A stretch of 64,000 nucleotides of DNA. It comes from Piedraia hortae CBS 480.64 (lineage: Eukaryota). The first letter of the stretch is position 1; every line of letters starts with the position of its first letter. Shown in pieces: positions 24,166 through 27,611 of the stretch. Under the pieces are notes generated by a model. The model made no database searches. It saw only the letters and a list, made by a program, of their open reading frames with translations, and had not been told where the DNA came from. Location of the stretch: the NCBI GenBank assembly GCA_010093745.1, contig MU005964.1, positions 1 through 64,000 on the forward strand, in the 5' to 3' direction. The position numbers and the translations under genes were made by a program.

Positions 24166-24945
24166 ATGCCACCAAATAGACGCTTCCGTGGCCTTGGCCT
24201 GATTGTCCTTTTAACCCTGTTCATCATCTTCTACCTTTCCAGCGGGCCCAAATCTACCCAAAACTCGCGCTTCTACACCCGCACCGTTGATGCTCTCAAA
24301 CATCGCCAAGAAGCCGGTGCGCGACAGCACGTTATTGAAAAGGAGAAGCAGCGGCTGGCTCGCGTTGAGCAGTTGCAAAAGGAACACGATGTCGCCATAT
24401 CTGCTCTCAAACCAGGCGCACTCGCCACAGAAACGCCGAAACCCGTAGCCGGGCGTAAGATAATTCCCGGCGAACGAATCGTTCAGACGAGACCGGCCCA
24501 CGATGACAACGATGGTGTAGCAAAAGTTGGCAACGTAGAATCCAAGCCTTCCGGGCCAGCAAAGAAAGGCTCGGTCGAAACCGAAGAGGATCATCGCGTG
24601 GAAGAGGAACTAAATGACATTCTCAAGAAGAGTCCCATTATAATCTTCAGCAAGTCGTATTGCCGGTTCAGCAAAAAGGCCAAGCACGTTCTGCTGGACT
24701 TGTACAACATCACCCCCGCGCCCTACGTCGTCGAGCTGGACAAGCACGAGCTCGGCTCATCCCTACAGAGCGCGTTAGGAAAATCGACTGGCAGACGGAC
24801 CGTTCCCAACGTTCTCATCAATGGCAAATCAATCGGCGGCGGAGACGACGTCGAGGCTCTCCATACAAGCGACAGGCTCATCAGCACAGTCTCGTCGATG
24901 GGCGGAAAGCGCGTGGAAATTCACAAAAAAACGACGACAAGATGA
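24166..24945 (+). CDS. Secretory-pathway monothiol glutaredoxin (Grx6/Grx7-like)
   Basis: N-terminal signal anchor. C-terminal Grx domain IIIFSKSYCRFSKKAK..PYVVELD..TGRRTVPNVLINGKSIGGGDD. Confidence 0.9.
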   Translation: MPPNRRFRGLGLIVLLTLFIIFYLSSGPKSTQNSRFYTRTVDALKHRQEAGARQHVIEKEKQRLARVEQLQKEHDVAISALKPGALATETPKPVAGRKIIPGERIVQTRPAHDDNDGVAKVGNVESKPSGPAKKGSVETEEDHRVEEELNDILKKSPIIIFSKSYCRFSKKAKHVLLDLYNITPAPYVVELDKHELGSSLQSALGKSTGRRTVPNVLINGKSIGGGDDVEALHTSDRLISTVSSMGGKRVEIHKKTTTR

Positions 24946-25229
24946 GGGCTGAGGTCAAGGCATGAGTGTATGATACCCCTAATTCGATTCGCCTAGCGAT
25001 GTGCATGTAGTCTTCAAAAGTGTTTGTTGTTCCCCATGCTGCCAGACCGTTACGATATTAATCTGCGAACAAGCAGAATATGTATTGCAGCCAAAAAAGG
25101 TTAGCGTGCCACGGTTCTTGTTCCGCGGAATGCACACTCTTATTTTTTTTTTTCCGCCGTTCAACCTATTGCAAACAATCCTCCGACATGTCTCGGTCTC
25201 GGTAAGTGCTCCCCTTTGCCATACATAAC

Positions 25230-25303
25230 ATGATGCGAACTTTGAACAATCCAAATCCTATAGCATCGTGAAGGACTCTATGCAAACTCTAGAATTACTC
25301 TGA
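25230..25303 (+). ncRNA. Box C/D snoRNA 1 (predicted guides: 18S A159-equivalent and 25S A-loop G2917 region)
   Basis: C box ATGATGC, D box CTGA. CTCTAGAATTAC complements 18S GUAAUUCUAGAG (+5 = the human Am159/SNORD45 site). TGAACAATCCAA complements 25S UUGGAUUGUUCA. Confidence 0.8.
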
Positions 25304-25438
25304 CCTTTCCCTACGTCTGCAATCCTGACGCGCGGCGAAGACTGGCTGACTGCGTGCAGTGATCGTTGCAGTGCCTGATAAGAAGCAGGCTCTGCGAGAT
25401 GATATTGCAAAAGGTAAGCAGACTTCCCCCTCCCTATC

Positions 25439-25518
25439 ATGATGATACCTCGACAAAATGGCATTCCTCGATCTGAATTATACTGTCGAACGTTGTCAAT
25501 AGTTTCAGCCTTGTCTGA
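25439..25518 (+). ncRNA. snR41: Box C/D snoRNA 2, snR41-like (18S Gm1126) with a second guide to the 18S ~1572 region
   Basis: ATGATGA..CTGA(D')..CTGA. AGTTTCAGCCTTG complements 18S CAAGGCUGAAACU (+5 = G1126). GGCATTCCTCG complements CGAGGAAUGCC. Confidence 0.85.
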
Positions 25519-25597
25519 TTTGTTCCTCTACTACTAAGATGACTTGCTCAAGAACATGCTAACTGTCATCAGGTAAGCGCCCTCTGCTGGTCCCGCG

Positions 25598-25705
25598 ATG
25601 ATGAATTCCACAACGCAACGGGCGGTCAGAGCACACTCCCCACCATCGAGACTTACAACCTCGAACGTCGGGTGGGGTGTTGTTTGTTGAGAACGCGTTG
25701 ACTGA
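25598..25705 (+). ncRNA. snR70: Box C/D snoRNA 3, snR70-like (18S Cm1639)
   Basis: ATGATGA..ACGGGCGGT-CAGA(D') complements 18S ACCGCCCGU (+5 = C1639). Long internal hairpin CCCCACC..GGTGGGG, terminal CTGA. Confidence 0.85.
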
Positions 25706-25785
25706 GCGCTGTCATGCACTTTTTTAGTGCGTCCACGTTCATGGCTGACCTGGTCAGAGGTATGTAACGTTCTCATCTGCTCCGC

Positions 25786-25849
25786 ATGATGAAAGCATTT
25801 TGTTGTGGAACGGTTCGCCGTTATGAGCCACGTACACTGAAAATTCTGA
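25786..25849 (+). ncRNA. snR51: Box C/D snoRNA 4, snR51-like (25S ~U2729 region)
   Basis: ATGATGA..ACACTGAAAAT-T-CTGA complements 25S AUUUUCAGUGU. The order snR41-snR70-snR51 matches the known yeast cluster. Confidence 0.78.
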
Positions 25850-26031
25850 TTTAATGAGGTGTGTTTGATGTTGCTGCCGAATGCGAATGCGAATGCTGAC
25901 TGGTGTAGCCTGATGCGTTATTGCCACCCTGTTTCCGTCTCAGCCGTGGACGATACTGACTCTGTATCAGAACAGACGGCAATGGAGCATGGATAATATC
26001 TCAAAGGTAGGTGGCTCTCCCCACCCCGAAG

Positions 26032-26088
26032 ATGACGACGAATACATCTGTCTGCAACCTCTTTGAAGACTGAAATCAAAATCTCTGA
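26032..26088 (+). ncRNA. Box C/D snoRNA 5 (25S ~U2724 region, snR67-like target area)
   Basis: C box ATGACGA, D' CTGC, C' TTGAAGA, D CTGA. AAATCAAAATC complements 25S GAUUUUGAUUU. Confidence 0.7.
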
Positions 26089-26167
26089 TTCAATCGCTAT
26101 CAAGACATTCATGGATGCGGACGTACTGACTTTAATAGGGTGCGTTTCTTTCTCATTGCTACATACG

Positions 26168-26239
26168 AGGATGACAAAACCAATTTTCGCTGTGTTCTTG
26201 CCGAGCGCCGCGCTGAAGATATCTACCTTGGAGAACTGA
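26168..26239 (+). ncRNA. Box C/D snoRNA 6 (predicted guides: 5.8S A43 region and 25S site equivalent to human Cm2824)
   Basis: C box AGGATGA, D' CCGA, D CTGA. TTTCGCTGTGTTCTT complements 5.8S AAGAACGCAGCGAAA with one G:U pair. ACCTTGGAGA complements 25S UCUCCAAGGU. Confidence 0.8.
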
Positions 26240-26294
26240 TCGTCGAATTACCAATTGCCGAAGATGTCCTGGAACCGGCTAACTTTTGCAGCAA

Positions 26295-27476
26295 CTAGAT
26301 ATCCAAGCCATTTGTAACCTCGATATACTTTTCAAACTGTCTTAGAGCTTCACCAGAATCAATGCACTCCCTGGCCAACCTCGCTCCTTCTTTCCATCGT
26401 AGTCCCCCCGGCCCTCTCTCTTTGATCTTACACGTGTTATCATCCTCTGGTAAACCACTGATGGTTAGTAAAGCAGCCGTATTCAGCAGCACAAACTGTA
26501 GCACCGGATCGTTGGGATCCAGCTCTCCCTTTAATATCCTCATCAGCAACTCCGCATTCTCATCCGGGCCCTTTCCGCCCTCCACCTCAGTCAAAGGAAA
26601 CGTATCCAAGCCAAAATCTCTCGGATGAAGATTAAACCTTTCTATCCCATTCCCATCATCAATAAACCAGCAATCCGTCCCTCCCGCACACGAAATCTCA
26701 TCCAACCCCTCCTCTCCACACACAACCAACGCCTTCCTCGCCCCGGACAACCTAACCGCCTCCGCAAAATCTCCCCCCACCTCCTCCCTCGCAACGCCCA
26801 CAACCCTCGCCTCCACGTACTCCTGCACCGGATTCGCCAACGGGCCAAGCAAATTAAAAATCGTCCTAACAGGAACCTCCCTCCTCGTAGCCGCCAAATG
26901 CTGCAGACCAACATGCCACTCCCTCGCATACAGAAACGCATAATTACACCCCTCATAAACCCTCGCCAAAGTCTCTGCCCTCACGGCCTCCAGTCTCGGC
27001 GCACGAGGCACCACACGCGCCAACAGATCCGCGGACCCAGAGAGCGACGTCGACGAATTATTTCCATGTTTCCCGACCAAGAGCTTTGCGCTCGCGCAGA
27101 TGCTGGAGGTGGTGGAGATGTTGAACGTGTTGTGTCCGTCCCCGCCTGTGCCCACAATGTCGACTAACCCTCCCTTGTATCCGCCACGGGAGAGGGAGGG
27201 ACGCTTCGCGAGGAGGGTGGTGCTCAACGCTCCTGGATCAGGGTGTTCGCAGGCGGAGAGGAGCGATGCTGCGCACGAGTTTAGGACCGAGGGGGAGTGG
27301 TCTAATCTCGTTGTATGGAGGGACCAGAGGAGCAGAGCTGTCTGAATCGGCGAGACGCGGTTGTGGAGGATTAGGGATATTGCCGCGGAGATTTCGGATG
27401 ACAGATCGTTTCTTGGGGAGGTTGAGAGGGTTTTTAGCAGGGGGGAGATGGATATGTATCCTTCCGTGGAGGGCAT
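26295..27476 (-). CDS. TRP4: Anthranilate phosphoribosyltransferase
   Basis: VDIVGTGGDGHNTFNISTTS, KHGNNSSTSLSGSADLL, RTIFNLLGPLANP, GLDEIS. First ATG at 27476. Confidence 0.96.
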   Translation of the reverse strand: MPSTEGYISISPLLKTLSTSPRNDLSSEISAAISLILHNRVSPIQTALLLWSLHTTRLDHSPSVLNSCAASLLSACEHPDPGALSTTLLAKRPSLSRGGYKGGLVDIVGTGGDGHNTFNISTTSSICASAKLLVGKHGNNSSTSLSGSADLLARVVPRAPRLEAVRAETLARVYEGCNYAFLYAREWHVGLQHLAATRREVPVRTIFNLLGPLANPVQEYVEARVVGVAREEVGGDFAEAVRLSGARKALVVCGEEGLDEISCAGGTDCWFIDDGNGIERFNLHPRDFGLDTFPLTEVEGGKGPDENAELLMRILKGELDPNDPVLQFVLLNTAALLTISGLPEDDNTCKIKERGPGGLRWKEGARLARECIDSGEALRQFEKYIEVTNGLDI

Positions 27477-27611
27477 TATCTTGTTTTGTGTTTGTTTGGC
27501 GGGCGCATTCCGTCGTGCGTTCACGTGAATGCTAGATGGGGGGAGCTGGGCGGACGTGTTCCGCGATTTTGACGACGTCGTCGGGTGCGTGAGTTGCTGT
27601 CGCAGTCAGCA

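Follow-up and report, generated by a model that had tools for sequence, protein, structure and literature searches.

On contig MU005964.1 of Piedraia hortae CBS 480.64 (assembly GCA_010093745.1), a glutaredoxin gene and a TRP4-like gene are separated by a region with no long ORF on the + strand. A sequence-only reading, which remarked that the open reading frame track shows nothing of it, proposed a hidden polycistron of six C/D snoRNAs, one in each of six consecutive introns, with three guides in addition to those of the yeast snR41-snR70-snR51 cluster. Analysis of the window (the whole stretch of DNA, 64,000 nucleotides) indicates that the locus is very probably the Euascomycete fungal snoRNA cluster III, a non-coding host with six intronic 2'-O-methylation guide snoRNAs. 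Its host is transcribed and spliced. Nothing about the locus is unusual for a filamentous ascomycete apart from unit 5, an additional snoRNA of restricted lineage.

The locus and the data

24166..24945, + strand: glutaredoxin-domain protein gene (ORF; Pfam PF00462, E 4.1e-12), the upstream neighbour and not part of the host gene
25202-26291, + strand: predicted host gene, introns A to C (cluster III), non-coding and intron-hosting
26295..27524, - strand: TRP4-like anthranilate phosphoribosyltransferase gene (ORF; Pfam PF00591, E 4.3e-60), downstream and convergent

RNA contig cover of the glutaredoxin gene reaches 24981 (Logan contigs, one run), and the TRP4-like gene has its stop codon 3 nt past the host gene's last predicted acceptor. 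The TRP4-like protein belongs to an Atlas cluster that is mostly Ascomycota.

The RNA evidence consists of Logan contigs from the single public run that contains the locus, the RNA label of this run being a guess. Such contigs are suited to splice joints, not to mature snoRNA ends or abundance. Their cover is absent over 25036-25269, and the 5' part of the host is thus outside the RNA evidence. The rRNA targets were taken from the rDNA of other fungi (contaminant contigs in prokaryote assemblies), not from P. hortae rRNA, and the length of each anchored duplex was compared with 300 shuffles per guide position. Conservation was followed in a set of 80 homologous metagenome loci retrieved by the snR41 guide.

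Six C/D units of near-constant geometry

Along the + strand the cluster order is U45-like (unit 1), snR41/Afu_455 (unit 2), snR70-type (unit 3), snR51-type (unit 4), an extra unit (unit 5) and U55-like/Afu_294 (unit 6). The C boxes of these six C/D-like units, all on the + strand, start at 25230, 25439, 25598, 25786, 26032 and 26171, and their CTGA motifs lie at 25300, 25515, 25702, 25846/25910, 26085 and 26236, a CTGA box D being found in all six. The C box corresponds to the consensus RUGAUGA in units 2, 3 and 4; units 1 (ATGATGC) and 5 (ATGACGA) carry one-base variants and unit 6 (ATGACAA) a two-base variant. Non-consensus D' boxes are found in units 1, 3 and 6.

From donor to C box the distances are 28, 25, 25, 26, 25 and 31 nt for units 1 to 6, and from the end of the D box to the acceptor 56, 54, 52, 57, 50 and 52 nt, the 57 nt of unit 4 being measured from a D box at 25910-13 to the acceptor at 25970. 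The near-constant geometry claimed from the sequence alone is thereby upheld, with ranges of 25-31 and 50-57 nt. The D box is separated from the branch-site motif by 38-43 nt.

Anchored duplexes of 11-15 bp were obtained at 9 of the 13 guide positions tested and were matched in length by 0-7 of 300 shuffles. Every unit has at least one anchored duplex, of 11-15 bp in units 1, 2, 4, 5 and 6 and of 9 bp in unit 3. The D guide of unit 3 and the D' guide of unit 5 have no target in the fungal rDNA tested, the 16 nt used for the latter having been taken 2-3 nt too far upstream. Boxes and duplexes together confirm the six units at the place and on the strand proposed, and guide order and splice joints confirm the identity as a snR41-snR70-snR51 cluster in a non-coding intron host.

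Rfam, which had been suggested as a check, recovers part of the cluster: two of the six units, Afu_455 and Afu_294, exceed their gathering cut-offs, and the snR70, snR51 and SNORD45 models do not reach theirs. Searched at E up to 10, the window has no match to snR70 or snR51; below the gathering cut-off, it gives snR67 at 19.6 bits (cut-off 55) and SNORD45 at 16.1 bits (cut-off 42). We attribute this low recovery to the splitting of one gene by an intron and to the divergence of the others from the yeast and human seeds. Units 1, 3 and 4 were assigned by guide, cluster position and the published Euascomycete scheme, not by Rfam models.

Abutting introns in the core of the cluster

25360..25413, + strand: non-coding host exon 2; 3' end RNA-supported (three contigs end or join at 25413), 5' end predicted
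25414..25572, + strand: intron I, GT..AG joint in RNA contigs; holds unit 2
25435-25520, + strand: unit 2, snR41 / Afu_455 / Neurospora crassa CD9 (Rfam RF01860, 57.4 bits, cut-off 48)
25573..25757, + strand: intron II, starting straight after the acceptor of intron I (CAG|GTAAGC, 25570-25578); holds unit 3
~25594-25709, + strand: unit 3, snR70-type; C box 25598, D' guide 25618-26 followed by CAGA, internal stem-loop, D box 25702

Unit 2 carries two guides for 18S rRNA. The D guide pairs over 14 bp with GCAAGGCTGAAACT (0/300 shuffles) and the D' guide over 11 bp with CGAGGAATGCC (6/300). For the D' guide, the D'+5 rule falls 1 nt off the G of the yeast snR57 site. Unit 3 is assigned less by pairing than by context: its 9-bp duplex with 18S ACCGCCCGT is not significant alone (90/300 shuffles), and a snR70-type guide is found downstream of the snR41 guide in 62 of the 80 homologous loci. 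Of the 62 loci carrying the snR70-type guide, the 28 inspected show the same layout of guide, stem and box. Divergent D' boxes and a D'-C' stem have been described for snR70 (van Nues 2011). A second 18S-complementary stretch in unit 3 (25666-25680) was rejected as a guide, there being no box after it and the stretch forming the internal stem.

The exon between introns I and II has a length of 0 nt. In one contig exon 2 is followed by 25573, from where the sequence continues unspliced to 25759, and a fully spliced contig lacks the whole of 25414-25757. An abutting YAG|GTR junction is present in 59 of the 62 homologous loci with a snR70-type guide.

An intron nested inside the snR51-type gene

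25758..25759, + strand: 2-nt exon (AG) between introns II and III (CAG-AG-GTATGT, 25757-25760)
25760..25970, + strand: intron III (outer), GT..AG joint; holds the split snR51-type snoRNA
25782-25858 and 25909-25917, + strand: unit 4, split snR51-type; C box 25786, D' guide 25834-44 with CTGA 25846, D guide 25846-58 plus 25909, D box 25910-13, terminal stem CGCA/TGCG
25859..25908, + strand: intron B, 50 nt, spliceosomal, inside the snR51 gene between the 18S guide and box D and nested in intron III
25971..26006, + strand: 36-nt host exon, flanked by two observed joints

In the fully spliced contig, exon 2 is followed by AG and then by 25971 onward (called as a joint 25413->25969 with ends 'GT..TC'); this AG would derive from 25758-59. 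Of the interior exons of the core, one is thus reduced to 0 nt and the other to 2 nt.

Splicing of intron B takes place with the outer intron still in the transcript: one contig has intron B removed, with GT..AG ends, and keeps both 25730-25858 and 25909-25998. With intron B out, the D guide of unit 4 pairs over 14-15 bp with 18S GGCTCATTAAATCAG (0/300 shuffles), as against 8 bp in the unspliced genomic control, where 223 of 300 shuffles are as long. Most likely, then, the D box that functions is 25910-25913, which the guide adjoins only once intron B is gone. The sequence-only reading had placed the D box and the acceptor of this unit upstream, ending the intron at 25908; the intron ends at 25970. 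Accordingly, CTGA 25846-49 was rejected as the D box of unit 4 and kept only as its D' box. A 10-nt match of unit 4 to 18S (25791-25800) was also discarded, having the same sense as the rRNA.

The nested arrangement recurs in related loci. The guide for the A100 site occurs in 50 of the 80 and is followed directly by GT in 42 of these 50; in the loci in which the 3' end was found, by pattern or by eye, the intron after the guide is about 45-60 nt long and reaches box D. In the other 8 of the 50 the guide abuts CCTGA directly.

The D' guide of unit 4 pairs over 12 bp with LSU GATTTTCAGTGT (0/300 shuffles), a target placed at the U2724-equivalent by its distance of 193 nt from the D' target of unit 1. 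The sub-threshold Rfam matches to this gene type are the snR67 match in the window and, in one homologous locus (L110), snR51 at 29.4 bits (cut-off 44). In the accessible text of Canzler 2018, snR51 (CD_6) guides yeast 25S-2724 in Onygenales and part of Dothideomycetes, a switch with which the target of unit 4 is consistent.

The end units

25202..25359, + strand: predicted intron A (U45-type); GTAAGT donor 25202, CTGAC branch motif 25346, CAG acceptor 25357-59
25226..25307, + strand: unit 1, U45-like C/D snoRNA, N. crassa CD17 equivalent; C box ATGATGC 25230-36, D' guide 25243-54, D guide 25287-99, D box 25300-03
26139..26139, + strand: 1-nt exon (G), provided that intron C splices as predicted (TAG|G|GTGCGT)
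26140..26291, + strand: predicted intron C (U55-type) with donor, branch and acceptor motifs; holds unit 6
26167-26242, + strand: unit 6, Afu_294 snoRNA (Rfam RF01506, 51.2 bits, cut-off 43); C box ATGACAA 26171, D' guide 26185-99 with CCGA 26201, D guide 26225-34, D box 26236

The D guide of unit 1 pairs over 13 bp with 18S GGTAATTCTAGAG and its D' guide over 12 bp with LSU TTGGATTGTTCA, each equalled by 1 of 300 shuffles. In Rfam the unit gives a guide match to SNORD45 only, below threshold. N. crassa CD17, a homolog of U45A/C, has the same two targets, 18S-Am154 (13/0, D) and 26S-Gm2875 (12/0, D') (Liu 2009, PMC2780460), in agreement with the 18S A159-equivalent and G2917-region sites predicted from the sequence. 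Assignment of unit 1 to the yeast A100 site was rejected, the rDNA position (152-164) and the N. crassa table (PMC2780460) both giving the human A159-equivalent.

For unit 6, the D' guide forms 15 bp with 5.8S AAGAACGCAGCGAAA (0/300 shuffles) and the D guide 11 bp with LSU TCTCCAAGGTG (7/300). Afu-294 of Aspergillus fumigatus is assigned Am43 in 5.8S and Cm1851 in 26S (Jochl 2008, PMC2377427), so that the 5.8S A43 and LSU C sites foreseen by the sequence-only reading match published ones. U45-type and U55-type guides are present in 29-49 of the 80 homologous loci.

The boundaries of intron A are motif predictions. For introns A and C no splice joint was found in the Logan contigs of the one run, whose cover is absent over 25036-25269. 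When 26007-26138 is removed, the contig resumes at 26139; the region 26139-27456, including the predicted intron C, is spanned by an unspliced contig.

The extra unit between the snR51- and U55-type units

26007..26138, + strand: extra intron, GT..AG joint in RNA contigs; holds unit 5
~26028-26092, + strand: unit 5, C/D snoRNA; C box ATGACGA 26032-38, C'-like TGAAGA 26064-69, D guide 26072-83, D box 26085-88

The D guide of unit 5 pairs over 12 bp (one G-U) with LSU GATTTTGATTTT, a length reached by none of 300 shuffles, and the uridine to which it points lies in LSU, 7 nt upstream of the site equivalent to yeast U2724. The unit has no Rfam match in the window or in homolog L110 and is absent from the A. 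fumigatus and N. crassa snoRNA lists (PMC2377427, PMC2780460). Among the matches listed in a literature search for methylation at LSU/25S U2717 there is no rRNA paper. Unit 5 alone of the six may be new, an undescribed, lineage-restricted snoRNA.

Its status is best considered against the possibility that it is non-functional, a decaying duplicate or a chance arrangement of boxes in an ordinary host intron. Several features would fit decay: the C box is a variant, no D' target or Rfam family was found (the former with the displaced 16 nt already mentioned), the published lists of two species do not include it, and it is missing from most homologous loci, the model R1 matching it in 7 of 80. 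Among these seven, five have the guide in common, and two (L126 and L175) have a different D guide. Against this, guide and box D are invariant in an alignment of six sequences with a mean column identity of 62%, the anchored duplex exceeds all shuffles, the intron is spliced with a geometry like that of the other five units, and the unit always occupies the same slot between the snR51 and U55 units. We therefore consider a non-functional unit 5 unlikely. That unit 5 represents an undescribed, lineage-restricted C/D family, gained as an intron between the snR51 and U55 units and guiding methylation of an LSU uridine, is a proposal that we put forward tentatively. If true, it would add a third methyl group in a helix stretch already targeted twice, at the snR67 and snR51 sites; it would also mean that some Pezizomycotina have one more predicted rRNA methylation site, and that cluster III offers another dated snoRNA-intron gain.

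Order of splicing and expression of the guides

GT..AG joints in RNA contigs define the introns 25414-25572, 25760-25970, 25859-25908 and 26007-26138. Once intron I is out, exon 2 lies directly against the GTAAGC with which intron II starts, and recursive or stepwise splicing is consequently needed. The hallmark of splicing across a zero-length exon is seen both in the intermediate that joins 25413 to 25573 and in the final form without 25573-25757. In one contig (depth 46.9), 25760-25970 has been spliced out while intron II still contributes 28 nt or more of its 3' end on the upstream side, which implies that the 25760 donor worked with no exon 2 next to it. If intron III is lost ahead of intron II, the internal donors of abutting introns would be able to act with no exon upstream of them, which would run against a strictly 5'-to-3' stepwise model.

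An alternative stated in Luo 2013 (PMC3596301) is that only the donor of exon 2 works and chooses any of three acceptors, introns II and III not being separate and their GT motifs being inert. The final product would be identical to that of separate introns, and the intermediate joining exon 2 to 25573 is compatible with both models; moreover, the accessible text of Luo 2013 reports, among 42 ESTs, none in which a downstream intron was lost before an upstream one. However, the depth-46.9 contig shows the donor at 25760 in use away from exon 2, a donor-like GTR follows the acceptor in those 59 of 62 homologous loci, and the donor-to-C-box distance is kept at 25-26 nt in introns II and III, which makes a single working donor improbable. 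Still harder to sustain is processing of an unspliced polycistron by endonuclease and exonuclease, as in Saccharomyces cerevisiae, with splicing incidental. The two end units, with no splice joints in the contigs, would fit it, but four GT..AG joints lie each precisely around single snoRNAs, the spacing from box to splice site is conserved and, according to the accessible text of Luo 2013 (PMC3596301), the cluster is intronic in all Euascomycetes; we give this reading almost no credence.

The version in which the locus was first read, an unrecognised polycistron of six simple introns with three guides new to fungi, is very improbable, scarcely more credible than the last. Its six units and their geometry are real, the ORF track is empty, and Rfam at gathering level catches only two units. 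The introns, however, are not six simple ones: it missed the nested seventh, intron B, and left three 'exons' between introns of only 0, 2 and 1 nt. In addition, the cluster, its U45 and U55 additions and their targets are already given by Luo 2013 (in the accessible text), Liu 2009 and Jochl 2008, so that neither the hidden cluster nor the three extra guides as a set is a discovery. Two of these guides were already listed, and unit 5 alone is unaccounted for in the accessible text of Luo 2013 and in the texts of Liu 2009 and Jochl 2008.

The preferred reading, a spliced non-coding host with separate abutting introns, suggests the following pathway. A Pol II-type transcript would have the six guide snoRNAs, one per intron, as its only useful products, and the spliced host RNA (exons of 54, 2, 36 and 1 nt plus terminal exons) would have no coding role. 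By analogy with established intronic snoRNA biogenesis, the excised lariats would be debranched and trimmed to the snoRNP core on the C/D boxes, and the constant spacing of 38-43 nt between box D and the branch motif would fit snoRNP assembly coupled to splicing. Splicing of intron B would presumably be required to set the guide for the 18S A100 site beside box D. From the D/D'+5 rule, methylation is predicted in 18S rRNA at the human A159-, G1126-, C1639- and A100-equivalents and in the G1572/A1573 region, in 5.8S rRNA at A43, and in LSU rRNA at C1851 (A. fumigatus numbering), at the U2724- and G2917-equivalents and, for unit 5, at the U 7 nt upstream of U2724.

Comparison with known clusters

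The value of the locus is mainly one of annotation, as an example of snoRNAs missed by an ORF-based track. It also illustrates well, in a natural gene, splicing in a forced order: introns abut, one exon measures 2 nt, and a snoRNA gene has an intron nested within it. The mechanistic interest lies in this nesting and in the splice sites that abut, though both are published: the architecture is already in print (2010-2016).

In the accessible text of Luo 2013 (PMC3596301), the Euascomycete cluster III has gained a U45-type and a U55-type intron, one at either end, and has lost two interior exons, which brings introns into direct contact; within snR51 lies a small intron B. The P. hortae locus shares with it the order of units, the non-coding spliced host, the end introns (here predicted), the intron-intron-intron structure, the position of intron B between the snR51 antisense element and box D, and an intermediate that has lost intron I but keeps intron II. 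It differs from what that text describes in having an additional snoRNA intron between the snR51 and U55 units, in one interior 'lost' exon of 2 nt rather than 0, and in the contig from which intron III was removed before intron II.

The snoRNAs concerned have been listed experimentally (Liu 2009, PMC2780460; Jochl 2008, PMC2377427): CD17, CD9 and CD6 in cluster III of N. crassa, and Afu-455 along with Afu-277 and Afu-294 as the A. fumigatus cluster. Afu-455, assigned Gm1122 in 18S (PMC2377427), and Afu-294 match here at Rfam level and with the same targets (18S Gm1122; 5.8S Am43 and 26S Cm1851). Afu-277 shares the 18S A100-type site (Am97), whereas its 26S Um2706 is the neighbouring snR51-type site (PMC2377427); the LSU guide of unit 4 points to the snR67-type site (U2724-equivalent), in contrast to N. 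crassa CD6 (Um2687) and Afu-277 (Um2706), which are directed to the snR51-type site. The flanking genes also differ from those of the homologous loci: in the synteny comparison suggested for the locus, neither Grx nor TRP4 was found beside the cluster in any of the 80 (tblastn, 1,500-nt flanks, E 0.01; window control positive).

Outside this lineage, the snoRNA polycistrons of the Candida clade undergo recursive and nested splicing (Donovan 2016, PMC5033589, citing Mitrovich 2010). As here, they have zero- and one-base exons, a regenerated 5' splice site and more than one order of removal leading to the same product; they belong to another lineage, and an intron inside a snoRNA gene is additional in P. 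hortae. The likeness to metazoan snoRNA host genes was drawn by Liu 2009 (PMC2780460). The UHG and GAS5 hosts likewise have one snoRNA per intron, short unconserved exons and no coding potential, whereas in the P. hortae cluster the exons shrink to 0-2 nt between introns of 130-210 nt.

Locus layout and guide targets

Between a glutaredoxin-domain gene and a TRP4-like gene, whose protein falls in an Ascomycota-dominated cluster (Atlas look-up), the + strand carries six units that each have a box C and a box D motif:

24166-24945, glutaredoxin-domain gene (PF00462), upstream neighbour
25202-25359, +, predicted intron A, unit 1 (U45-like)
25414-25572, +, intron I, unit 2 (snR41/Afu_455)
25573-25757, +, intron II, unit 3 (snR70-type)
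25760-25970, +, intron III, unit 4 (snR51-type), with intron B (25859-25908) inside the snoRNA gene
26007-26138, +, intron with unit 5 (extra unit)
26140-26291, +, predicted intron C, unit 6 (U55-like/Afu_294)
26295-27524, TRP4-like gene (PF00591), convergent to the snoRNA units

A motif scan gives a spacing of 25-31 nt between GT donor motif and unit in all six cases; combined with sequence reading, it places the end of each box D 50-57 nt upstream of a YAG acceptor and 38-43 nt upstream of a CTRAC branch motif. Rfam upholds two of the six snoRNAs of the sequence-only reading above cut-off, Afu_455 (25435-25520, 57.4 bits) and Afu_294 (26167-26242, 51.2 bits), with nothing beyond weak, sub-threshold guide-level matches among the remaining four (snR67 19.6 bits, SNORD45 16.1, SNORD19 17.1).

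Target rRNA came from the rDNA of other fungi, present as contaminant contigs in prokaryote assemblies and retrieved with three standard primers, the rRNA genes being placed with Rfam. Duplexes were anchored at most 2 nt from the box and each was compared with 300 shuffles.

Anchored guide duplexes with fungal rRNA (unit and guide; length; target; shuffles as long)
Unit 1, D; 13 bp; 18S; 1/300
Unit 1, D'; 12 bp; LSU; 1/300
Unit 2, D; 14 bp; 18S; 0/300
Unit 2, D'; 11 bp; 18S; 6/300
Unit 3, D; no anchored duplex found
Unit 3, D'; 9 bp; 18S; 90/300
Unit 4, D'; 12 bp; LSU; 0/300
Unit 5, D; 12 bp; LSU; 0/300
Unit 5, D'; no anchored duplex, the 16 nt tested lying 2-3 nt too far upstream
Unit 6, D; 11 bp; LSU; 7/300
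Unit 6, D'; 15 bp; 5.8S; 0/300

Eighty homologous loci with DNA were found in metagenomes by using the 18-nt snR41 guide, together with box D, as query. The D' guide of unit 2 (25460-25476), which pairs with 18S CGAGGAATGCC, is conserved in 48 of them; the D'+5 rule points to an A adjoining the G that we take to be the yeast snR57 site. No further target of the snoRNA is listed in Jochl 2008 (PMC2377427) or Liu 2009 (PMC2780460). The predicted targets agree with published assignments for N. crassa (CD17, 18S-Am154, homolog U45A/C, and 26S-Gm2875; CD9, 18S-Gm1122; Liu 2009) and A. fumigatus (Afu-455, Gm1122; Afu-294, Cm1851 in 26S and Am43 in 5.8S; Jochl 2008). The cluster had been correctly named, in outline, from sequence alone. 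Since the LSU targets of unit 1 and unit 4 (D') are 193 nt apart, the predicted unit 4 target is the N. crassa Um2682 site, equivalent to yeast U2724 (snR67-type). Canzler 2018 assigns the U2724 target to snR51 (CD_6) in Onygenales and part of Dothideomycetes.

Eukaryotic rDNA contigs occur in many prokaryote assemblies and MAGs of the genome collection (L001-L106), and the ITS1-F primer site, which is directed at fungi, is present in 13 of them. A complete fungal LSU, interrupted by a group I intron (L052, 3109-3451), lies on a 24-kb contig that had been binned as Bryobacteraceae.

A split snR51 gene

Unspliced, the sequence upstream of CTGA 25910 does not complement rRNA (8 bp, equalled by 223 of 300 shuffles). 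Removal of 25859-25908 joins 25846-25858 to 25909 and creates a perfect 14-15 bp duplex (0/300 shuffles) with reference 18S positions 96-110, GGCTCATTAAATCAG; the site is equivalent to yeast A100. The same removal leaves a terminal stem, CGCA/TGCG, flanking box C (25786) and box D at 25910. The sequence-only reading had taken CTGA 25846 as box D of unit 4; duplex and stem belong with CTGA 25910, and CTGA 25846 is therefore a D' box overlapping the second guide. In A. fumigatus, Afu-277 was assigned Am97 (Jochl 2008).

The A100 guide core is present in 50 of the 80 loci; in 42 of these an intron starting with GT begins immediately after it and extends to box D (about 45-60 nt where the 3' end can be placed) and in eight it directly abuts CCTGA. 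Intron B contains three tandem GAATGC hexamers (25880-25897), the rest being poorly conserved between loci. In L111, L113, L121, L124, L127, L137 and other loci it apparently ends in AAG, not YAG, before CCTGA; provided that its position there is the same as in the window, such an acceptor would be unusual.

Variation among homologous loci

A snR70-type guide lies within 330 nt downstream in 62/80 loci, with GTR directly after the acceptor in 59 of the 62; U45-type and U55-type guides occur in 29-49 and 31-36 of the 80, respectively. Common to the snR70-type units are a divergent D' box (CAGA), a stem-loop and, near box D, a C'-like box, in line with what van Nues 2011 reports for yeast snR70. 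The glutaredoxin and TRP4 flanks, part of the locus as originally described, flank the cluster in none of the 80 loci.

Unit 5 has no Rfam match, either in the window or in a better-conserved homolog, and is absent from the snoRNA lists of Liu 2009 and Jochl 2008 and from sections 5-8 of Luo 2013; it may be new. A model of sequence alone, derived from six of its copies, matches the window and 7/80 loci, and each match lies between the snR51 unit and the U55 unit; in 19 of 30 loci spanning both neighbours the spacing is, on our reading, too short for it. Guide and box D are invariant among the six aligned copies, the other sequence being divergent; the guides differ in two of the seven matching loci (L126, L175). 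Unit 5 is predicted to target an LSU uridine located 7 nt 5' of the U2724-equivalent site; among the papers listed by a literature text search for this uridine, none was relevant. In L126, some 200 nt separate a U2724-type guide (+428 from the snR41 guide) from an uninterrupted A100 guide (+644), and the two seem to belong to different units. This arrangement, with the other D guide of its unit-5-like snoRNA, indicates that cluster composition differs between lineages.

Splicing

RNA evidence consists of contigs holding the locus from one public run, whose RNA label is a guess. They have GT..AG joints exactly at predicted sites: 25414-25572 is removed with 25573-25759 following unspliced; 25760-25970 is removed from a contig that retains 28 nt or more of the intron sequence upstream; 25859-25908 is removed with 25730-25858 and 25909-25998 kept; and 26007-26138 is removed. 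A further form joins exon 2 (25360-25413, 5' end predicted) to AG and 25971 onward. No joint was found in this run for 25202-25359 or 26140-26291, and 25036-25269 has no cover.

From these joints, the intron I acceptor abuts the intron II donor with a zero-length exon between them, introns II and III are separated by a 2-nt exon (25758-59), from which we infer that the contig AG originates, and intron B is spliced while intron III is still present. Intron III can also be removed before intron II, a small point (one contig, one run) against a strictly ordered model.

One contig (26139-27456) starts in the host gene, crosses the Afu_294 unit unspliced and continues into the TRP4-like gene, probably through merging of convergent transcripts in an unstranded assembly. 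The predicted last acceptor of the host gene (26291) and the stop codon of TRP4 are 3 nt apart, so host and TRP4 transcripts probably overlap tail to tail.

Relation to known clusters

The feature is real and probably functional. It is also ordinary for Pezizomycotina and its essentials are already published, leaving unit 5 and the order of splicing as a modest remainder of possibly new matter. In Luo et al. 2013 (PMC3596301), cluster III is snR41-snR70-snR51, all Euascomycetes have lost its two interior exons (intron-intron-intron), introns of U45 and U55 type have been gained at its two ends, a non-snoRNA intron B is inserted in snR51 between antisense element and box D, and ESTs suggest either stepwise 5'-to-3' removal or one donor with three acceptors. 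Candida versions show nested and recursive splicing with zero- and one-base exons (Donovan et al. 2016, PMC5033589), and the cluster snoRNAs were cloned by Liu 2009 and Jochl 2008. On these four reports, the locus is an ortholog of one already described, unusual splicing included.
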